Assembly (NCBI GenBank): GCA_963667325.2 | Contig: CAXXKY010000006.1 | Location: 49,666 to 113,665, forward strand | Origin: Dehalococcoidia bacterium | Lineage (GTDB): Bacteria > Chloroflexota > Dehalococcoidia > Lucifugimonadales > UBA3495 | Length of the DNA stretch: 64,000 nucleotides | Reading direction: 5' to 3' | In this document: positions 32,278 to 62,176 of the stretch, piece by piece | Position numbering within the stretch: the first letter of the stretch is position 1 | How the letters are laid out: the number at the start of each line of letters is the position of its first letter | The notes under the pieces: generated by a model | What the model saw: the letters and a program-made list of their open reading frames with translations, nothing else | What the model was told of the DNA's origin: nothing | The model's database searches: none | Program-made: the position numbers and the translations under genes

Positions 32278-34143
32278 ATGTACGTAATTGGCACTGCCGG
32301 CCACGTTGACCATGGCAAGTCCACGCTGGTGAAGGCGTTGACCGACATTGATCCCGATCGTCTGCCCGAAGAGAAGGAGCGGGAGATGACCGTCGATCTG
32401 GGCTTCGCGTGGATGACGCTGCCCAGCGGTCGCGAGGTCAGCATTGTCGACGTGCCGGGCCACGAACGCTTCATCAAGAACATGCTGGCCGGCGTGGGCG
32501 GCATTGACCTGGCTCTCCTCATCGTCGCGGCAGACGAGAGCGTGATGCAGCAGACGCGGGAGCACCTGGCGATCCTCGACATCCTTCAGGTAACGCGCGG
32601 AATGGTCGTCGTAACCAAGACCGACCTCGTGGACGAAGAACTGGTCGAGCTGGTGAAGGCCGAAGTCGAAGATGTTCTCACCGGAACATCTTTCGAGGGC
32701 TGTCCCATGGTGGGTGTTTCCGCTTACACCGGCGACGGCATGGACGAACTGCGCGGCATGATCGACAGCATACTCGATGACACGGAAGCTCGCCGAGATC
32801 TGGGCCGTCCGCGTCTCCCCATTGACCGCTGCTTCACCATATCCGGCTTCGGGACGGTTGTTACCGGCACCCTGATAGACGGATCGCTGGCCGTGGGACA
32901 GGAGATAGAATTTGCTGGTTCACAGCAGCGCGCCAGGATACGGGGGCTGCAGAGCCACAAGACCCGCGTGACCAGCGCCGAGCCGGGTGTCCGGCTCGCC
33001 GTGAACCTCTCCGGCATCTCCCGCGACGACATTCAGCGCGGCGAAATTCTCACTTCCCCCGGATGGTTGCGCCCGGCCAACCGGCTCGACGCCCGCATGC
33101 GGATGGTCAACGACGCACCCCATTCCCTGAAGCACAACGAGGGCGTCACCTTCCACCTGTTCACCGGCGAGTCTCCTGCTCGGGCCCGCCTCCTGGACGC
33201 AGAGCAACTCGCGCCTGGCGTCGAGGGATGGGTCCAGATACTGTTGTCTGATGCGCTTCCTGTAGTTAAGGGTGACTATTTCGTCATCCGTTCCGCCGAC
33301 AGCACTCTCGGAGGCGGGCAGGTTGTGGACCCCAACCCTCGCCGCCGACACCGCCGCTTCGACCCTGGCGTTGCCGAACGCCTGATGCTGCTGGATGAAG
33401 GCGCCAGCGAGGACGTGATCGTCAGCGTTGCCGAGCAATGGGGCCCCTGCGGCCTCACGGAGCTGTCGCGACGCGCCAATCTGCCGCGAGAGGAAGCTCT
33501 GGAACGCGCTGTTGCCTTGGCGGAAGAAGGCGACCTTGTCGCCCTGGGAGACCTGGCATCCGACGGCGATGCTGTCGTTTATTCCTCGCTCGGATGGGGC
33601 ACCCTCAAGGGCAGGCTGGCCACCGCTCTGCGCTCCCACCACGACCAGTACCCCCTGCGCAAAGGAGCGCCGGCCCAGGAAATTCGCAGCCGTCTCGGGC
33701 TTTCCCAGCCCGTCTATCTTCGTGCTTTGGTCCTGCTGACCAGCGAAGGGTTCGTTGTCGAGGATGGCCAGACCGTGCGACTGCCGGGCCATGAGGTGAC
33801 ATTCAGCTCGAAGGTCGAGCAGCAGGTTGCCCGTTTCCTGCAGGCCCTGGAGCGGGAACCCTACTCGCCTCCCACCGACAACCAGCCGGACCCGGAAGTG
33901 CTGGGAGCGCTGGTGGACCAGGGCAAGGTGGTGCGCGTCGGCGACTCAGTGGTCTTCGCCGCCGATGCCTACCGCGAAATGACCGACCGCGTCGTTGCCC
34001 ACCTGCGCGAACATGGGACCATCACCGTGGCCGAGGCCCGGACCCTCTTTGACACCAGCCGCAAGTATATTCTGCCCCTGCTGGAACGCATGGACCAGGA
34101 GCAGATAACCCGCCGTTCCGGCGACGAGCGCGTCCTGAGGTAG
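32278..34143 (+). CDS. selB: Selenocysteine-specific translation elongation factor SelB
   Basis: 621-aa ORF. It has [21 protein letters not shown] and TKTD G-motifs, plus a long C-terminal winged-helix extension typical of SelB length and architecture. Confidence 0.85.
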
Positions 34144-52005: not shown

Positions 52006-52298
52006 TGTTTTTCCTCCCAAAGCTTTGGTTCCCGTAATCTTAACATACGGCTACTCCTGTCCCGGCCGAGCCAGTACCCTCTCATAGTTCCTGCGATTCC
52101 GTTGGTGCGAGCTGGTCAATCCGCCACTGGATTCTGGAAACCGATCCTTCGACAGCTTCAGGATCAAGGTCTTGGGTTCTAGGTGGACATTGACCATCCC
52201 TGCCGCCCCGCTTATGGCCTGCGAGAGCAACCGCCTCCTGTGCTACAATCGCCCAGTTGCCGAAGGGCATTTTTGACAACTCTGGGAAGGCATCACGT

Positions 52299-53891
52299 AT
52301 GTACTTTGACTCTCGACGCAGCACCGTTCTGGCCTCCAACGGCATGGTGGCCACCAGCCAGCCCCTGGCAGCCATGGCAGGATTGCAGGCGCTGATGGAC
52401 GGCGGAAACGCCGTTGATGCCGCCATCACCGCCGCCGCAGCTCTCAATGTGGTCGAACCCAATTCCACCGGCGTCGGTGGGGACTTGTTTGCGCTGGTCT
52501 GGAACGAGAAGGGAAAATCAGTCCGCGCCATCAATGGCAGTGGCCGGGCTCCGGCGGCTTCCAGCATCGAGGAGTTGACCAGCCAGGGTTACCGCGCCAT
52601 GCCCGGGGCCGGGCCCTACTCCGTCGCCGTACCGGGAACGGTCCAAGGTTGGGAAACGCTGCGGGCCGAGTGCGGCTCCATGCCGCTCTCCCGTCTGCTG
52701 GAGCCTGCCATACGCTATGCAGAGGAAGGCTTCCCTGTCTCCGAGGTCATCGCCTGGCAGTGGGAGAACAACCTCGCCAAGCTGCTCTCCTACCCATCCG
52801 GCGAGGAGATGCTGCTGAACGGCGAGCCGCCCAAGAAAGGCGACCTGATGAAGCTGCCCACCTTGGCATTCACCCTGCGCGCCATCGCCGACGAGGGGTG
52901 TGACGCCTTCTATCACGGGCCCATCGCGCAGAAGATGGCATCATTCGTGCAGGAGCACGGCGGCTGGCTGACCACCGAAGACCTCGCCGCCCACACGACC
53001 GAATGGGACGAACCGATCGCCACCGACTACCGGGGTGTCACCTGCTGGGAGTGCCCGCCCAACGGCCAGGGCATAGCCGCTCTCGAGGCCCTGAACATCG
53101 CCGAGGGCTTCGACATTGGCGCAATGGGACCCCAGTCCGCCGACGCCTACCACCACCTGATCGAGGCCATGCGCCTCGCCTTCGCCGACGCCTACAAGTA
53201 CGTGGCCGACCCTCGCGTGGTCGACGTCCCCACGGAACAGCTGGTCTCCAAGAGTTATGCGGCCGAGAGACGAACGCTTATCAACCGCAGCAAGGCCATG
53301 GTTTCGGTGCCCTACGGCCAGCCCATTTCCGGCGGCAACACCGTTTACGTCAGCGCCGTCGACGGTCAGGGCAACGCCTGCTCCCTGATCAACAGCATCT
53401 TCTCCGACTTCGGCTCCGGCATGGTCGCCCCGGGAACAGGCATCGTGCTGCACAACCGCGCGGGCCTTTTCTCGCTGGACGCCTCTCATCCCAACGCCCT
53501 CGCACCGGGCAAGCGTCCCTACCACACCATCATCCCCGGCCTTGCCACCAAGGACGGTGAGCTGCTCTACTGCTACGGCATGATGGGCGCATTCATGCAG
53601 CCCCAGGGGCACCTGCAGCTCATCAGCAACATGGTCGATCACGGCATGGACCCGCAGCAGGCCATCAACGCCCTCCGCTTCATGGTGGGCAACGACCAGG
53701 CCATGGTGGAAGAAGGCATCAACCCCGATGTGGCCCGTGAACTGCAATCTCGAGGCCACAAGCTCGGACTCATGGCCGGACGCTCCCGGGTATCCATTGG
53801 TGGCGCACAGGTCATCAGCCGCGACCATCAGACCGGCGTGTTGCAGGGCGGCACCGAACCCCGCAAGGACGGCGCAGTAGTGGGCTGGTAG
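52299..53891 (+). CDS. ggt: Gamma-glutamyltransferase family protein (no signal peptide)
   Basis: ORF trimmed to MYFDSRRSTVLASNGMVATSQPLAA. Also has NAVDAAI, GGNTVYVSAVD (autoprocessing Thr context) and GTEPRKDG. Confidence 0.85.
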   Translation: MYFDSRRSTVLASNGMVATSQPLAAMAGLQALMDGGNAVDAAITAAAALNVVEPNSTGVGGDLFALVWNEKGKSVRAINGSGRAPAASSIEELTSQGYRAMPGAGPYSVAVPGTVQGWETLRAECGSMPLSRLLEPAIRYAEEGFPVSEVIAWQWENNLAKLLSYPSGEEMLLNGEPPKKGDLMKLPTLAFTLRAIADEGCDAFYHGPIAQKMASFVQEHGGWLTTEDLAAHTTEWDEPIATDYRGVTCWECPPNGQGIAALEALNIAEGFDIGAMGPQSADAYHHLIEAMRLAFADAYKYVADPRVVDVPTEQLVSKSYAAERRTLINRSKAMVSVPYGQPISGGNTVYVSAVDGQGNACSLINSIFSDFGSGMVAPGTGIVLHNRAGLFSLDASHPNALAPGKRPYHTIIPGLATKDGELLYCYGMMGAFMQPQGHLQLISNMVDHGMDPQQAINALRFMVGNDQAMVEEGINPDVARELQSRGHKLGLMAGRSRVSIGGAQVISRDHQTGVLQGGTEPRKDGAVVGW

Positions 53892-54888: not shown

Positions 54889-55371
54889 TCAGAGCGACGT
54901 GAGCGCACCCTCGGGCGACAGCACGTTCAGCCCGTAGCGCGCCTCGATGCCAGAGGAAGCTAGGTCGGCACGAAGGGGCTGGTCTGAGGTTACGAGACTT
55001 GTATCTCTCCCTGTTTCTTCCACCGCTAACCTGACAATGAACTTGTCATCCAGGCTGCCTTGCGGTATGTCTCCCTCTTCAGGAAACGGCGGTGCGGTAT
55101 GGCCCAAGCCCTCGATCTTTCCCTGCACCTGCAACAACTGCCATAGTTGGAGCATCGCGTAGGCGCCCTCTTGGGCGTGATGAAGCCTAGGATTGTTCAG
55201 TTGGTTGTCATATTTGTCCCAGAGGACGTCATCTACTACGAAAGAGTACGGCTCTATATCGGCAATCTTGTCGAATAGCTCTCTGGACACGGGACTGGGC
55301 TGATCGCACTCGTTCAATCCCCTTTGAGCGTATATGACAACGTTCTCGTCGAGGATGTACCTGGTTGTCAT
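54889..55371 (-). CDS. PIN-like domain protein (putative nuclease)
   Basis: 160-aa ORF whose ATG overlaps the upstream stop (ATGA at 55371-55368). YILDENVVIYAQ, VVDDVLW and SLVTSDQPLRADL fit the acidic-residue layout of PIN-like folds. GC is lower than the flanks. Confidence 0.5.
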   Translation of the reverse strand: MTTRYILDENVVIYAQRGLNECDQPSPVSRELFDKIADIEPYSFVVDDVLWDKYDNQLNNPRLHHAQEGAYAMLQLWQLLQVQGKIEGLGHTAPPFPEEGDIPQGSLDDKFIVRLAVEETGRDTSLVTSDQPLRADLASSGIEARYGLNVLSPEGALTSL

Positions 55372-56348
55372 GAGTTCTTTCGAAGTCCGTCAGCATAACG
55401 CCGCATCTCATCTCGGGTGGCCTCGTGGAATCCCGTTAATCCACCCTTCACTTGCCCCCGCTCCGTAACCTCTATTTCCGTGGCGGAGCATTCGCCCTTC
55501 TCGTCCTTCAGGAAAGAGTAAATCGCCAAGTCGTCCGTCGTCAGAGTCCCTTCTGCCACCATAGTCAGCAACCGACCCGCCACGTATTCGCTATGCGTGG
55601 TCATGATGATCTGCTTGTCTTCGGCCTTCGCCATATCCGCCATCACTTCCGCCAAATCCGCCTGCGCCTTCGGATGCAGGTGAATCTCTGGCTCCTCAAT
55701 CAGCACCGTCGCGCCTTTCTCGGCTATAATCAGTTGGTGGAGGAGCTGAATCAAGGAGTTTGTACCAAACCCCTCTCCCAATATATTCACCTCCCTTTCT
55801 TTAATTTTCGATTTCACCTCAACTTTTCGTCCCCGAACTGGATCAGCTATCAGCCCCACGCCGGTCACCTTTACCATCATCTTCGATAATTTATCGGCCT
55901 CCTTGTTCCGATAAACTAGGTTGGTCGCAAGCTGCGCCTCTTGAGCATCGAACCCTTCCCCCAGAGAAAGGTAATCAGCGTCTCGATCCCCTAGATCGTA
56001 ATTTGGCTGAATTAGCCCCCTAACGGCTGGAACAAACCTCAATTCGTCGAATGCCTGTCGTATTTCCTCATTATCTTGCCGCCCGCTGACCTTGACGCTG
56101 AGTGAGAACCCAGAAGATTCTTGCATGAAATTTGGAGCGATTTCGGTCTCCCCAATTAGATCAACGAATTCACCCTGGTAGACGAGGCGATTCCTAGGCT
56201 GTACCAAGGTTTGCTTCCACATGAGCAAGCCCTGCAGCACGCTCGACTTCCCCGTACCGTTAGGGCCGATCAGCACCGTCAGCAGCTTCGGATCAATGCT
56301 GACCTGACGAAAGCACTTGAAGTTCCCCAGCGTGATATTCGTAATCAT
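55368..56348 (-). CDS. ABC-type ATPase of the AAA_21/OLD-like class (defence-associated architecture)
   Basis: 326-aa ORF with NFKCF...LTVLIGPNGTGKSS (Walker A), GEGFGTNSLIQLL (signature-like), TVLIEEPEIHLHP (Walker B) and IMTTHS (H-loop). It has no transmembrane or transporter partner. Confidence 0.75.
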   Translation of the reverse strand: MITNITLGNFKCFRQVSIDPKLLTVLIGPNGTGKSSVLQGLLMWKQTLVQPRNRLVYQGEFVDLIGETEIAPNFMQESSGFSLSVKVSGRQDNEEIRQAFDELRFVPAVRGLIQPNYDLGDRDADYLSLGEGFDAQEAQLATNLVYRNKEADKLSKMMVKVTGVGLIADPVRGRKVEVKSKIKEREVNILGEGFGTNSLIQLLHQLIIAEKGATVLIEEPEIHLHPKAQADLAEVMADMAKAEDKQIIMTTHSEYVAGRLLTMVAEGTLTTDDLAIYSFLKDEKGECSATEIEVTERGQVKGGLTGFHEATRDEMRRYADGLRKNS

Positions 56349-56568
56349 AGCGGCGCCCTCCCACAGTCCATTGTATCAGCCCTGCCTGTGGCCTCCGTTG
56401 CATCAGCCAGCCCCGCAGCGTGATCGCAGCCTTGGGGCCACCGCACCATTTCGCTGACATTCGCCCCTTGCCAGCCCCTGTGGCGCCTCACTAACCTGAT
56501 TCTAGCGGCGGGTGCCAGACACAAACCTCTCTGCCCTTCCTGCAGGTTCGCCTCGATCCCATAATCTC

Positions 56569-56626
56569 GGGATGGCAGGAAATGAGCGGAAATAGGCGGA
56601 AAACAAAAATTTGCCCTCGCGAACCG
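56569..56626. repeat. ~58-bp direct repeat, copy 1 (GGAAAT-rich)
   Basis: GGGATGGCAGGAAATGAGCGGAAATAGGCGGAAAACAAAAATTTGCCCTCGCGAACCG. Confidence 0.75.
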
Positions 56627-56695
56627 TGCAAGTCGGCCCACCAAACCCGCCATCTATATGGATCAACCCAGACCCAGCCACAGGCTCTGAATCGC

Positions 56696-56782: not shown

Positions 56783-56920
56783 TCAGGATGCCATCGCCCC
56801 GTCGGCAAGCACCGGCTCCGTGCGCACCACCGCCCCGTCCGTGAGCACTACCCCGTCGGCGCAATACGCCTCGATGCGCCCCTCGTTGAACTGCTCGGCA
56901 TACAGCCGAGTATAGATCCC
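56783..56920 (-). other. In-frame continuation of the ABC exporter ORF beyond TGA 56921-56923 (45 codons + TGA)
   Basis: Translation is GIYTRLYAEQFNEGRIEAYCADGVVLTDGAVVRTEPVLADGAMAS*. It aligns with the paralogue tail GLYARLYREQYGGGLIEAYCEDGVVYSDGRIVSVGG... Confidence 0.7.
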
Positions 56921-58729
56921 TCAACGCCCCAGCAGTTCCTCGTGTGTCCCGTAATCGTTGATCCGCCCAGCGTTGATAACGAAGATGATGTCCGCCGCCA
57001 GTATCGTCGACAGCCGGTGCGCGATGACCAGCGTCGTCCGACCCTCCACCAGCGGCTTCAGCGCCGACTGCAGCCGCCGTTCGCTACCCATGTCCAGCGC
57101 CGAGGTGGCCTCGTCCAGGATCAGAATGCGAGGCTCGTGCAGCAGCGTCCTGGCAATCGACAGCCGCTGCCTCTCTCCGATGGACAGCCCGAACCCACGT
57201 TCGCCCACCACCGTGGCGTAACCGTCCGGCAACTCCATGATGCGGTCGTGGATGTACGCCGCCTTCGCTGCCGCCACCATCTCCTCTTCCGTCGCATCGG
57301 GCCGGGCGTACCGCAGGTTCTCCTCGATGCTGGTCTGCAACAGGTAGCTCTCCTGCGTGACAAACCCCACCGTCGAGGCCAGATCCGCCAATCGGATGCG
57401 CCGAACGTCGATGCCGTCGATCGACACGGCTCCTTCGGTGGCGTCGTACAGTCGGGGGACCAAAGCCGCGATGGAGGTCTTCCCCGCGCCGCTCGGCCCC
57501 ACGAACGCCGCCAGCTGCCCTGGCTCGATCCGGAACGACACGCCGTCCAGCGTCCACTGACGCGCGTCATCCCCATCGCCGGAAGGCGTATCTCCCCCGT
57601 AACCTCCCTGCCTCCTGACCCGCACCGCGTCGAAAATGACCTCGCCTTCCACAGTTTCCCGGTCAAGAGGCACGGCGTCGGGAGCGTCCGTGATCTCCTG
57701 CTCCAGGTCCAGGTATCCGAAGATGCGCTCGAACAGCGCCACCGACGCTTGCAGGTCCACCGAAACCTGCAGCAGCCGCTCCACAGGCCGGTACAGCTGT
57801 GCCTGCAGAGCTGTGAACGCGATGATAGTACCCGCAGTGGCCGCTCCGGCGCCGCCCGTGTATATCAGGTACCCGGCCAGCAGGTACACCAGTGCCGGCG
57901 ACAGCGTCAGGAAGGCGTTGGCCGCAGTGTAGAAGCTCTGGGCCAGCATCTGCTGCCGCACCGCGAACCGCGAAAGCTCCTCGTTGTGCCGCCGGAAGTG
58001 ATGCAACTCGGCGTGCTGCCTCCCGAACAGCTTCGCCAGCAGTATTCCGGACAGCGACAGTGTCTCCTCCGTCACCGCGGTCACCTGTGCCATGGAAGCC
58101 TGCGTACCGGCCATCAGTTCCCGCCGCTTGCGCCCGACCAACCTGGTCAGCAGGAAGAACACCGGCAGCGCCGCCATCGCCACCACCGTGAACTGCCACG
58201 AGAGCAGCAGCATCGCAACCACGACTGCGATGAGGGCGGCGAAGCTGGCCACAGAATCGGCGAAGGTGTTGGTCACCACCGGCTCGATGCCGTTGATGTC
58301 GTGCGAAACCCGCGACTGCATTTCCCCAGTCCGAGTCCGCGCCAGGAAGTTGACCGACATTCCCAGCAGGTGGTCGTAGACCGCCTCCTGCAGGTCTCCC
58401 GTCACGTCCTGCCCCACCCTGCTCGTAAGGTAGGACTGGGCGATGCTCAGAACCCCGCCGGCCACGGCGATCGCCGCCATCACCCCAGCCAGGACCCACA
58501 GCAGCATCAGGTTCAGCCCGCCTTCCGGTGGGAAGAGAGCGGCGTCGAACACTTCCTTGATCAGGACAGGGTTCGCAACGCCCAGAATGGCGTTGACAAT
58601 GATCAGCAGCCCCACCACGGCAACAGGCAGCCTGTACGGACCAAACAGACCGACAATCCTTCGCGCCACGCCCAGATGGCGGCCACTGTCCAGTTGCCGG
58701 TGATGATGAGGTTGCGGTGATTCCGCCAT
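56921..58729 (-). CDS. ABC exporter, fused permease/ATP-binding subunit (heterodimer partner 2); ends at an internal-looking TGA
   Basis: 602-aa ORF with a six-TM N-half, then GPSGAGKTS, LSIGERQRLSIARTL, ILILDEATSALD and IAHRLST. Confidence 0.85.
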   Translation of the reverse strand: MAESPQPHHHRQLDSGRHLGVARRIVGLFGPYRLPVAVVGLLIIVNAILGVANPVLIKEVFDAALFPPEGGLNLMLLWVLAGVMAAIAVAGGVLSIAQSYLTSRVGQDVTGDLQEAVYDHLLGMSVNFLARTRTGEMQSRVSHDINGIEPVVTNTFADSVASFAALIAVVVAMLLLSWQFTVVAMAALPVFFLLTRLVGRKRRELMAGTQASMAQVTAVTEETLSLSGILLAKLFGRQHAELHHFRRHNEELSRFAVRQQMLAQSFYTAANAFLTLSPALVYLLAGYLIYTGGAGAATAGTIIAFTALQAQLYRPVERLLQVSVDLQASVALFERIFGYLDLEQEITDAPDAVPLDRETVEGEVIFDAVRVRRQGGYGGDTPSGDGDDARQWTLDGVSFRIEPGQLAAFVGPSGAGKTSIAALVPRLYDATEGAVSIDGIDVRRIRLADLASTVGFVTQESYLLQTSIEENLRYARPDATEEEMVAAAKAAYIHDRIMELPDGYATVVGERGFGLSIGERQRLSIARTLLHEPRILILDEATSALDMGSERRLQSALKPLVEGRTTLVIAHRLSTILAADIIFVINAGRINDYGTHEELLGR

Positions 58730-58759: not shown

Positions 58760-60745
58760 TCAGCGGGACACGCCGGAAGGCGCCGGTTCCCGGCCACCAA
58801 CGGAAACAATACGCCCGTCGCTGTACACCACCCCGTCTTCGCAGTAGGCCTCGATCAGCCCGCCGCCGTACTGCTCCCTGTACAGCCGAGCGTACAGCCC
58901 CTCGTACGACAGCAGCTCATCATGGCTTCCATGCTCCACGATCTTGCCCTTGTCCAGCACGTATATAACGTCGGCCAACAAGATCGTCGACAGCCGGTGC
59001 GCCACCACCATCGTCGTTCGGCCGTGCATCAGCGGCACCAGCGCCGATTGAACGTACCTCTCACTCTCCGTGTCGAGGGACGAGGTCGCCTCGTCCAGAA
59101 TCAGGATTCGAGGCTGATGGAGTATGACCCGTGCGATCGCCAGCCTCTGCCTCTCGCCTCCGGAAAGCCGGAACCCCCGCTCGCCTACTATGGTGTTGTA
59201 GCCCTCCGGCAGTTCCATGATCCGCTCGTGGATGTGAGCTGCCTTGGCCGCCTCCACCAGCTCGAAGCAGGAGGCGTCGGGCTTGGCGTACAGCAAATTC
59301 CTCTCCATGCTGGCGTGGAACAGGTAGCTCTCTTGCGTAACATAGCCGATGCTCTCCGACAGATCCTCAAGCCGTATCTCCCGCACGTCGATGTCGTCTA
59401 TCCGCACTGCGCCTTCCGTTACGTCGTACAGGCGCGGCACCAGGGAGGCGATCGTAGTCTTGCCCGCTCCGCTTGGCCCCACGAATGCCGCCATCTGTCC
59501 CGCTGGAATGTTGAGGCTCACACCGTCCAACGCCCACTCCCGGTCTCCTTCCTGGACGTCTTCTCCTTCGTCTTCAACATCGCCGCCCGAACCGCGACGA
59601 TAGTTCACCCGCACCGAGTCGAAGGTGACCTGTCCCTTCACCCTGTCCGCTGGCAATGGCCGGGCATCGGGCGAGTCAACTATCTCCTGCTTCATATCCA
59701 GATAACCGAAGATGCGCTCGAACATCGCCAGTGACGACTGAAGCTCCACCGAAACCTGCAACAGACGTCCTACCGGGAAGTACAGGCGGTTCTGCAGCAC
59801 GGTGAAGGCGACAACCGTTCCGGCGGTGATAACCGCGGGTCCGCCTCCCGCAATGATGTACCCCGCCAGCAGGTAGATGGCCACCGGGCTTGCCGACAGG
59901 AACGCCATCACCACCGCAAAGAACGCATGGCCGATCATCTGCTGCCTTACCGTCAGGTCCGACAACTCCTGATTGTGCCTGCGGAAGTTCTCCATCTCCG
60001 CATGCTGCCGCCCGAACAGCTTGGCCAGCATGATTCCGGAGACCGATAGCGTTTCCTGGGTAATGACCGTCATTTCGGCCATGGACTTCTGGGTCTGCGA
60101 GGTGATCTCCCTCCTCTTGCGTCCCACCCATTGGGCCAGGAAGAAGTAGATGGGCACCGTGGCCACTGCCACCAGGGTCAACTGCCACGACAGGAACAAC
60201 ATCGCGCCGAGGGTGCTGGCCAGGATGGCGATGTTGGCTATGGTGTCGCTCAGGGTCGTGGTCACCACCTGCTGGATACCGCCGACGTCGTTGGAAACCC
60301 GCGACTGGATTTCGCCCGTGCGCGTGCCGGTGAAGAACCTCAGCGACATCCCTTGCAGGTGTGCGTACACCGAATCCCGCAGGTCTCGCATCACGTACTG
60401 CCCGACCTTGTTGGTCAGGTATGTCTGGACAATGCCCATTGCGGCGTTGGCTGCCGCAATTCCGATCATCACGCCGCCGATGATCCAGAGCAACCTGATA
60501 TTCGGGCCGCTGTCCGACGATATTCCCAGCCCGTCGTCGAACACCACCTGGATGAGCATCGGGTTTACTACACCCACCACCGAAGTCACCAGGATGAGGA
60601 GCACGACCACGGACACCCGGTAGCGGTAGGGAAGGAAGAGCCGCACCACCCGCGGCACCAGGTTCCCCTCGGCATCCGGCACAGGCACAGGCGAGGGCGC
60701 TGCGCCCCCTGCTTCCTGTCCGCTGTGTGAACGTGGATTCGCCAT
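58760..60745 (-). CDS. ABC exporter, fused permease/ATP-binding subunit (heterodimer partner 1)
   Basis: 661-aa ORF with GPSGAGKTT, LSGGERQRLAIARV, ILILDEATSSLD and VAHRLST. It lies 30 nt upstream of its partner. Confidence 0.88.
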   Translation of the reverse strand: MANPRSHSGQEAGGAAPSPVPVPDAEGNLVPRVVRLFLPYRYRVSVVVLLILVTSVVGVVNPMLIQVVFDDGLGISSDSGPNIRLLWIIGGVMIGIAAANAAMGIVQTYLTNKVGQYVMRDLRDSVYAHLQGMSLRFFTGTRTGEIQSRVSNDVGGIQQVVTTTLSDTIANIAILASTLGAMLFLSWQLTLVAVATVPIYFFLAQWVGRKRREITSQTQKSMAEMTVITQETLSVSGIMLAKLFGRQHAEMENFRRHNQELSDLTVRQQMIGHAFFAVVMAFLSASPVAIYLLAGYIIAGGGPAVITAGTVVAFTVLQNRLYFPVGRLLQVSVELQSSLAMFERIFGYLDMKQEIVDSPDARPLPADRVKGQVTFDSVRVNYRRGSGGDVEDEGEDVQEGDREWALDGVSLNIPAGQMAAFVGPSGAGKTTIASLVPRLYDVTEGAVRIDDIDVREIRLEDLSESIGYVTQESYLFHASMERNLLYAKPDASCFELVEAAKAAHIHERIMELPEGYNTIVGERGFRLSGGERQRLAIARVILHQPRILILDEATSSLDTESERYVQSALVPLMHGRTTMVVAHRLSTILLADVIYVLDKGKIVEHGSHDELLSYEGLYARLYREQYGGGLIEAYCEDGVVYSDGRIVSVGGREPAPSGVSR

Positions 60746-61045: not shown

Positions 61046-62176
61046 CTACCAGTCCTTGATGATTGGCAGCACCTCCTTGCCAAACAGCCCGATATTCGAC
61101 ATCGTGGCGTCGTGGGACATCTTGGACTCTTGCCCGTACATGATCAGGTGGTCCATTCCCAGTCGCGTGTGGATGTACTCCAGCTTTTCCAGCACCTGGT
61201 CCGGCGTGCCGCAGACGATGTGGTAGTTCTCCTTCAGTTCCTCGTAGGTCTGGTTCGCCAGCGGCTTGATCGTGCGTCGCGCGGCGATGGACGCGCTGGC
61301 CTGCGACCGGTAGCCCACCGGGTTCATGTACTCCCGAGGCGCCCGCGTCGTGGCTCCCATTCGCCAGACGAAATGCTTGGCCTCCTCGTTGGCCTTCTCC
61401 TCGGTCTCCGCCACGTAGCAGCACAACAGGTAGCCGAAGTTGTCGGGCGTCGTCTCCCGTCCCTCCTCGGCGGCGGCCTCCCGGTACATCCCGAACAGCT
61501 CCTCGGTCACTTCCACATCCGTCAGGAAGGCGACGTACGTGTATCCATGCCGTCCGGCCCACTGCGCCGTCTCCGGGCTGGAGGTGCCGGGCACCCACAC
61601 CGGCGGATGCGGCTTCTGGATCGGCACCATCCACGGGTTGACCGCCCGGTAGTTGTAGTGCTTGCCCTCCCAGCGAAACGGCCCCGGCGTGCTCCAGGTC
61701 TTGATCAGCAGGTCGTGGCACTCCTCGAACCGTTCCCGGTTCTCCACCGGATTCATGTTGGTCGAGACCGTCTCCACGCCGGTGCCCCGGACCATTCCGG
61801 AGATGACCCGCCCGCCGGAGATCACGTCGATCATCGCGATCTCTTCCGCCAGCCGCACCGGGTTCTCATGGATGGGCAGAATGTTCCCCAGCAGCAGTAT
61901 CTTGGCGTTCTGCGTGGTGCGGGCCAGCACTGCCGCCGTCAGGTTGCACGACGCGTTCATGCACGACGGCGTGCTGTGGTGCTCGTTCACCATGATCCCG
62001 TCGTAGCCCAGCTCGTCCACGTACTGGCACTCGTCGAAGTACCGCTTGAAGAGCTGATTGGCCGTCGGCGGATCGAAGTTGCTGTTGGGGAAGGTGAGCC
62101 GTATCGACGGGTACTTGAGGCTCTCCTCATCAGAATACTCGTGATACGGAAACTCGCTGAAGTAGTAGACCTTCAT
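61046..62176 (-). CDS. LLM-class flavin-dependent monooxygenase/oxidoreductase
   Basis: 376-aa ORF with LGYDGIMVNEHHSTP, LGNILPIHENPVRLAEEIAMIDVISGGR and PHPPVWVPG. Confidence 0.85.
   Translation of the reverse strand: MKVYYFSEFPYHEYSDEESLKYPSIRLTFPNSNFDPPTANQLFKRYFDECQYVDELGYDGIMVNEHHSTPSCMNASCNLTAAVLARTTQNAKILLLGNILPIHENPVRLAEEIAMIDVISGGRVISGMVRGTGVETVSTNMNPVENRERFEECHDLLIKTWSTPGPFRWEGKHYNYRAVNPWMVPIQKPHPPVWVPGTSSPETAQWAGRHGYTYVAFLTDVEVTEELFGMYREAAAEEGRETTPDNFGYLLCCYVAETEEKANEEAKHFVWRMGATTRAPREYMNPVGYRSQASASIAARRTIKPLANQTYEELKENYHIVCGTPDQVLEKLEYIHTRLGMDHLIMYGQESKMSHDATMSNIGLFGKEVLPIIKDW

Follow-up and report, generated by a model that had tools for sequence, protein, structure and literature searches.

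A probable selenocysteine codon at the nucleotide-binding end of an ATP-binding cassette exporter subunit in Dehalococcoidia

Selenoproteins are nearly always oxidoreductases, with selenocysteine (Sec) at the catalytic centre. The bacterial paradigm, E. coli fdhF, combines a conserved in-frame UGA, cysteine (Cys) homologues in the same alignment column, a nearby stem-loop with a small G-containing apical loop, and the selA, selB, selC and selD genes; criteria for new bacterial selenoprotein families have been described (Zhang et al., 2005, PMC1088965). Among ATP-binding cassette (ABC) transporters, selenoproteins are known from the SAO system, namely SaoP (a permease), SaoB and SaoX (substrate-binding) (Haft & Gwadz, bioRxiv 10.1101/2022.07.06.499078; J Bacteriol 2023); Sec never occurs in the ATP-binding subunit of this system, SaoA, 'and that is expected' (bioRxiv 10.1101/2022.07.06.499078). 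Described transport-related selenoproteins comprise SaoB, SaoX, SaoP, MerT-like proteins, P-type ATPases, YeeE/YedE and SO_0444 (2026 review table, Haft & Gwadz, BSepDB and deep-Sep papers). In the 2026 review table, transport proteins are limited to the SAO importer subunits and a small number of carriers for metals or sulfur. Here, a pair of adjacent ABC half-transporter genes is described from a 64,000-nucleotide stretch of a Dehalococcoidia bacterium genome (assembly GCA_963667325.2, contig CAXXKY010000006.1, positions 49,666 to 113,665), referred to below as the window, in which the downstream gene is interrupted by a TGA at 56921-56923 that is very probably a selenocysteine codon.

Save for compensatory changes in the stem, the sequence-based hallmarks used in the bacterial selenoprotein literature are found at this locus, and in the conserved UGA, the Cys homologues in its column, the near stem-loop and the selA/B/C/D set it resembles the fdhF paradigm. 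In contrast to selenoproteins of the fdhF type, however, the exporter is no oxidoreductase, and its wider family has glycine (Gly) at the site and no catalytic Cys; Cys, and then Sec, would therefore have been newly acquired after gene duplication. With the SAO proteins the exporter shares the presence of Sec in an ABC transporter component and the fact that annotation pipelines routinely cut such genes at the UGA. The SAO proteins are nevertheless importer subunits with a substrate-facing Sec at gate or pocket, whereas the Sec of the exporter would be cytoplasmic, at the C-terminal end of the nucleotide-binding domain (NBD). None of the SAO families NF040733, NF040727 and NF040735 occurred among the best 25 of 183 NCBIfam matches.

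Translation and alignment bear out the layout given in the original prediction, which had been made from the letters of the window. The minus-strand open reading frame (ORF) 56921..58729 has 602 codons and ends in ...HEELLGR-TGA; past this TGA the frame stays open for 45 codons (GIYTRLYAEQFNEGRIEAYCADGVV...) until TGA 56783-56785, and these codons are alignable with the tail of the upstream paralogue (...SYEGLYARLYREQYGGGLIEAYCEDGVV...). In a six-frame search of relatives, 15 further genomes from the genus of the window yielded an orthologue interrupted in frame by a single TGA, located at the same codon in all re-oriented loci (...LL[GDE]R-TGA-G[IV]Y[TA]RLYAEQ...), and the two paralogues adjoin in all Sec-bearing genomes found in this way; the sole stop-free orthologue of the set has Cys at the TGA codon (HELLSRCGLYAKLYAEQ). 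More than 20 other assemblies of this one Dehalococcoidia genus were covered, and all orthologues examined from them carry TGA at the identical codon. The codon is kept in 18/18 aligned orthologues, as well as in G002, G011 and G322, at protein identities of 68-92% and, among the 18 compared Sec-type genes, nucleotide identities of 75-94%, and its context CGT-TGA-GG is invariant across orthologues.

The comparison of orthologues called for in the original prediction thus returned TGA within the genus, TGC in sister lineages and Gly more widely. Among loci retrieved independently from GTDB representatives, which are metagenome-assembled genomes (MAGs) assigned to Dehalococcoidia, Chloroflexota or SAR202 and in many cases closed chromosomes, the column contains 17 TGA, 3 TGC (Cys; L061, L066 and L095) and 44 Gly codons, the others encoding N, D, R, K, S, Q or H, and Cys also occupies the site in the database proteins P0002, P0003, P0005, P0009 and P0011 (...LL[ST]RCGLY...). 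At position 603, most relatives have Gly, others N, D, R, K, S, Q, H or E, and ABCB1 has Lys, in agreement with the earlier remark that ABC exporters normally have no redox residue there. The wider family reaches Actinomycetota, e.g., Paractinoplanes globisporus. Of 401 genomes sampled evenly across the order, 76 have the tail-bearing family, and the Sec form is confined to the genus of the window; G262, G284 and G414, each listed with one TGA in the order-wide scan, were discarded as Sec forms, these being ordinary terminal stops through which the aligner had read.

Phylogenetically, the family forms a ladder that ascends from Gly paralogues through L061 (Cys), L066 (Cys), G011 (Sec) and G002 (Sec) to a core Sec clade, with support of 87/82 for Sec as a single group and 100/99 for Sec and Cys forms together. 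One Gly-to-Cys step plus one Cys-to-Sec step would suffice to explain this tree. Paralogues lie side by side in genomes with a Sec or Cys gene, and single-copy relatives have Gly; the proposed origin is a succession of Gly, Cys and Sec that would have followed duplication within a single clade of genus rank among marine or sponge-type Dehalococcoidia.

Selection on the protein extends beyond the TGA. Among the 18 Sec-type genes, dN/dS (the ratio of nonsynonymous to synonymous substitution rates) is 0.11 for codons 604-632, as compared with 0.14 for the rest of the gene (transmembrane domain (TMD) plus ATPase), and dS among the Sec-type lineages is ~0.45. Purifying selection on the downstream codons, for which the original prediction had proposed a check, is therefore present, and the value of 0.11 argues that the tail is translated. 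TGA is nonetheless the stop of 584 of the 1,743 long genes of the genome, the exporter gene included, and because it is otherwise an ordinary stop the genetic code is not reassigned.

At the RNA level, the previously noted hairpin resembling a selenocysteine insertion sequence (SECIS) was recovered at the same place and forms the core of the predicted fold downstream of the TGA; the G of its loop GU is nucleotide 21 counted from the U of UGA. Pairs were counted in the register of this hairpin, of 6 possible: the 17 TGA genes have 6/6 pairs in 15 cases and 5/6 in 2, the 3 Cys genes 1-2/6, Gly genes mostly 4/6 or fewer, and the paralogue in the window 3/6, which agrees with the earlier statement that the paralogue has no equivalent structure. 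The stem is built from the codons ACT-CGG-CTG-TAY-GCC-GAG, of which CGG, CTG, GCC and GAG are fixed and ACT is found in 17/18 orthologues, and CGT precedes the TGA in 18/18. Both CGT (10% of Arg codons in the genome) and ACT (12% of Thr codons) are rare, and given the codon usage of the genome the complete set of codons would occur together with a prior probability of ~5e-4. Rfam at gathering thresholds returned two tRNAs only in the window.

The genome encodes the full Sec set: selB, correctly placed in the window by the original prediction, selA (541 bits), selD (374 bits, with an in-frame TGA of its own) and tRNA-SeC (C3:279253-279349). Nine genes of recognised selenoprotein families (Table 1), selD among them, with an in-frame TGA and a similar hairpin lie on contigs C3, C2, C5 and C7, outside the window. 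The genome scan, which recovered the eight genes other than selD, required an in-frame TGA, coding signal on both sides, a downstream hairpin and a G within the first two loop positions; loop length, GU and spacing were not preset but came out of its matches. No Sec-type formate dehydrogenase was found as a SECIS reference, the two molybdopterin proteins having no in-frame stop, and selD and the eight other families served as references for this reason. Their hairpins have stems of 6-8 bp, a loop of the form N-G-U-N-N in 7/9 genes (the BtuF-like gene departs from it with AGGUU and the OsmC-like gene with CGUG, of 4 nt) and a loop G(U) 21-25 nt from the U of UGA in 8/9, with 31 nt in SelD. The exporter hairpin (UGUAU, G at nucleotide 21) fits this class, and the rarity of such hairpins after TGA triplets in the genome (0.07%) counts in favour of recoding. 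Moreover, a U stands immediately 5' of the UGA in 8/10 Sec-UGAs, the exporter included, as against 16% of ordinary TGA stops, which accounts for the frozen CGT before the exporter UGA.

Several further features of the genome touch on Sec decoding. The U before the UGA may be a context preference of Sec decoding in this lineage. At C7:322140-323777, the OsmC-like and BtuF-like (CxxU) periplasmic-binding selenoprotein genes are adjacent, and the SECIS stem of the latter, UCUCGGC/GCCGAGG, includes the exporter stem CUCGGC/GCCGAG. Long, well-scoring ORFs end in TAG (849), TGA (584) or TAA (310). TAG as the commonest stop is unusual at 60% G+C and may result from a Sec-rich organism avoiding TGA as a stop.

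Taken in this context, genuine Sec insertion at residue 603, an option that the original prediction listed as unusual, is the highly probable interpretation of TGA 56921-56923, and the evidence that favours it consists of the Cys sisters, the strict co-occurrence of hairpin and TGA, the likeness to SECIS elements and the complete machinery. A recent nonsense mutation, or an assembly or sequencing error, previously held to be the most conservative option, would explain the in-frame stop itself and nothing more; since more than 20 other genomes, assembled independently and in many cases as closed chromosomes, also have TGA at this codon, and since dN/dS downstream is 0.11, it is rejected as having next to no probability. 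It is also very improbable that the TGA is a genuine stop that yields a functional 602-residue protein and leaves the 45 downstream codons as an untranslated relic. The public gene call P0010 does end at 602 residues and TGA is the normal stop in a third of the genes, but the supposed relic evolves under a dN/dS (0.11 at dS ~0.45) as low as that of the gene body, in all orthologues examined the frame runs on without a stop to about the same end point, and the truncated product would lose the conserved last NBD helix. Programmed or leaky readthrough without Sec, in which a near-cognate tRNA (Trp, Cys or Arg), aided by the hairpin, would produce a mixture of 602- and 648-residue proteins, likewise accounts for the conserved TGA and for protein-level selection on the tail, and position 603 tolerates G, N, D, R, K, S, Q, H and E in relatives. 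As one of the options raised at the outset it is compatible with these two observations, yet nothing specific supports it: the sister lineages have Cys specifically, the stem length, loop size, GU, spacing and preceding U are those of the genome's known SECIS genes, and complete Sec machinery accompanies at least nine other Sec genes, so that readthrough of this kind appears very improbable.

A number of observations weigh against Sec insertion or its proposed role. The whole 61-nt segment folds unremarkably (z = -0.81), and synonymous-site entropy in 11-codon windows ranks the region no better than 15th-18th from the bottom among 442, preferred codons of the genome making up several codons of the stem. 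The stem is invariant save for single mismatches (L045, L055, G322 and also G011), and no double changes were seen, compensatory changes being absent because the stem hardly varies. Covariation and the entropy scan are accordingly the weakest part of the RNA-level argument, which, given the near-invariant stem and the modest entropy rank, rests on the rare CGT and ACT codons together with the co-occurrence of hairpin and TGA. Furthermore, the hairpin class (stem of at least 6 bp, at most one G-U pair, 5-nt loop N-G-U-N-N, 9-14 nt past the TGA) and its background rate in the genome, 83 of 120,357 TGA triplets (0.07%), of which 21 have perfect Watson-Crick pairing, were defined only after the data had been seen. 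On the protein side, the AlphaFold2 model of the tail has a moderate predicted local distance difference test score (pLDDT) of 55-69, residue 603 is far from the known catalytic sites of ABC ATPases and is Gly in most relatives, and we know of no established chemistry that calls for Sec at this residue.

If Sec is inserted, decoding would be expected to follow the established bacterial mechanism, in which SelB with Sec-tRNA(Sec) would bind the 17-nt hairpin 10 nt past the UGA and, competing with release factor 2, bring Sec to the ribosome. A 648-residue ABCB-type half-transporter with U603 would result. Under scarce selenium, termination at the UGA would instead be expected to give a 602-residue product without the last helix and the tail.

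Table 1. Positions of the exporter pair, its putative recoding elements, neighbouring genes and Sec-related genes (window coordinates)
Feature	Coordinates	Strand	Description
Full-length Sec-containing ABC half-transporter gene (putative)	56783..58729	-	648 residues with U603; TMD + NBD; ends at TGA 56783-56785
In-frame UGA, putative selenocysteine codon	56921..56923	-	Residue 603; orthologue alignment
Arg602 codon CGT	56924..56926	-	Gives U immediately 5' of UGA; codon alignment
SECIS-like hairpin CUCGGC-UGUAU-GCCGAG	56894..56910	-	17 nt, 6-bp stem, 5-nt loop; begins 10 nt past UGA
45 codons 3' of UGA	56786..56920	-	Last NBD helix and family-specific C-terminal tail; dN/dS, AlphaFold2 model
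Cys623 codon TGC	56861..56863	-	Sole cysteine of Sec subunit; orthologue alignment
Signature motif of Sec subunit	57173..57187	-	Residues 515-519
Upstream paralogue, presumed heterodimer partner	58760..60745	-	661 aa; 30 nt from Sec gene; Glu at Sec position; no hairpin
selB, selenocysteine-specific elongation factor	32278..34143	+	TIGR00475, 336 bits vs cut-off 242
Luciferase-like monooxygenase	61046..62176	-	
Gamma-glutamyltranspeptidase	52257..53891	+	
AAA_15/AAA_21 ATPase + small-protein pair	54889..56348	-	
102-codon ORF	56345..56653	-	
Nine genes of recognised selenoprotein families (outside window)			SelD, PrdB/GrdB-like, AhpC/TSA (UxxC), two UGSC, AhpD-like (CxxU), OsmC-like, BtuF-like (CxxU), DUF3179; Pfam/NCBIfam

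The Sec subunit has the domains PF00664 (139 bits) and PF00005 (100 bits) in Pfam and shows the marks of an ABCB-type half-transporter, with an N-terminal ABC_membrane domain fused to a C-terminal ABC_tran domain and the motifs GPSGAGKT, ILILDEAT and AHRLST. Among named exporter equivalogs in NCBIfam, none scored above cut-off, the best being TIGR02203 (MsbA) with 401 bits against 602. The adjacent paralogues, 61% identical to each other, presumably form a heterodimeric exporter. An AlphaFold2 model of the Sec subunit (mean pLDDT 74) is matched best in Foldseek by TmrAB and TM287/288 (E ~1e-39, TM-score 0.72-0.80, 33-35% identity), with further matches to Sav1866 and MsbA. With TmrAB and TM287/288 the pair shares both the arrangement as adjacent paralogous half-transporters and a single degenerate signature motif, which here belongs to the Sec subunit and reads LSIGE in 17/18 orthologues and LSNGE in 1/18; the partner subunit and the remaining family retain LSGGE. 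The LSIGE of the Sec subunit therefore suggests a heterodimer with two unequal ATP sites, one of them non-canonical, as in these two exporters. CydDC offers a further parallel as a heterodimeric ABCB-type exporter linked to thiol redox chemistry (cysteine/glutathione), and its families TIGR02857 and TIGR02868 give weak matches of 224-237 bits. These scores are, however, far under the cut-offs of 435 and 329 bits (CydD 237 vs 435), there is no cydAB context, and the subunits described here are recent paralogues.

Sec603 would stand at the junction ahead of the last NBD helix, whose motif G-x-Y-x-x-L-Y-x-x-Q occurs in all relatives and in solved ABC exporters, and 20 residues before Cys623. In Sec subunits the tail reads E-Q-F-x-x-G-x-[IV]-E-A-x-C-x-D-G-V-V..., and beyond '...EQ' it has no counterpart among the sequences of solved structures and no Pfam model. 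The C-terminal helices of TmrAB form a 'zipper' in which they touch each other beneath the NBDs; the exporter tail differs from those of TmrAB and TM287/288 in having Cys and Sec and in lacking a sequence counterpart in solved structures. A C-terminal extension of ~35 residues, ...EQ[FY]xxGx[IV]E[CA]xCxDG[VI]V..DGx[IV]..., was additionally seen in L062-L124, which comprise Dehalococcoidia, one Poribacteria MAG and Actinomycetota (Paractinoplanes, Streptosporangiaceae).

Cys623 is encoded by TGC in 18/18 orthologues, and most Sec subunits contain Cys623 and Sec only. Across the wider family, tail cysteines vary by clade, in the forms E-C-x-C-E-D-G, E-A-x-C-x-D-G, Q-W-x-C-P-D-G or none. In the partner subunit, the tail Cys is replaced by Phe in 7/17 Sec-type loci (L050, L051, L053, L054, L057, L058 and L059), and an intersubunit bond between Sec603 and the partner tail Cys was set aside on this account. 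Separately, the partner has gained a Cys in its helical subdomain (PDASC...) in 13/17 Sec-type loci. In the AlphaFold2 model, the secondary structure of the tail consists of a helix at 605-617 and strands at 619-623 and 626-629, and such a 13-residue helix with a returning 5-residue strand could place residue 623 near 603.

An intramolecular pair of U603 and C623 is favoured because Cys623 is invariant and, in most Sec subunits, the sole cysteine, the partner Cys is variable and the predicted helix-strand unit could turn back. Such a pair may form a selenylsulfide or a ligand pair for redox or soft-metal sensing that acts on the ATPase dimer. In its fullest form, the proposal is that Sec603 and Cys623 constitute a reversible selenylsulfide or soft-metal pair in a tail docked under the NBD dimer, so that cytoplasmic oxidants or metals would switch the exporter; this is advanced tentatively, as a possibility that we regard as rather doubtful. 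The pair would then couple the state of the tail, and hence NBD dimerisation or ATPase activity, to cytoplasmic redox or metal status. To our knowledge, no selenium-based switch on the ATPase engine of an ABC transporter has been described. If such a switch operates, selenium supply would also select between full-length and tail-less protein, and the Cys-bearing tail family (E-C-x-C-E-D-G; Dehalococcoidia, Actinomycetota) would represent an unrecognised regulatory module of ABC exporters.

With respect to existing catalogues, a fused ABC exporter or an ABC ATPase domain is absent from the 2026 review table, the Haft & Gwadz preprint, BSepDB and the deep-Sep papers, though it may be listed in the BSepDB data tables or in Haft and Tolstoy 2025. 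The exporter would be a new selenoprotein family, absent from those catalogues, with recoding of a kind that is already well understood. For the related Dehalococcoidia UBA1141 and isolate 10f4566d, 46-49 selenoproteins have been noted (BSepDB paper). Public gene calls for the exporter, e.g., P0010, are 46 residues short, and selenoproteome counts for Sec-rich Dehalococcoidia probably miss it if they are based on truncated calls.

The wider interest of the locus lies in selection appearing to retain Sec on the ATPase side of a fused exporter, at a position that was ancestrally Gly. Sec at the end of the NBD would point to a regulatory or sensing rather than a catalytic use of selenium. Furthermore, the path from Gly through Cys to Sec after duplication is visible in the tree, and the three forms provide a clean natural series for testing what Sec adds.

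As regards the gene neighbourhood, a luciferase-like monooxygenase gene, oriented like the exporter pair, is located 300 nt upstream, and a gamma-glutamyltranspeptidase gene ~3 kb downstream on the opposite strand. Synteny of both extends to most Sec loci and a few other Dehalococcoidia, and not to the wider family, and no neighbour gene accompanies the exporter throughout Dehalococcoidia and Actinomycetota; since the neighbours are syntenic only among close relatives, the context gives no substrate. Between the exporter and the adjoining ATPase gene lies the 102-codon ORF, which has no Pfam or NCBIfam match. The AAA_15/AAA_21 ATPase and small-protein pair just downstream keeps its place in 14-16 of the 17 Sec-type loci.

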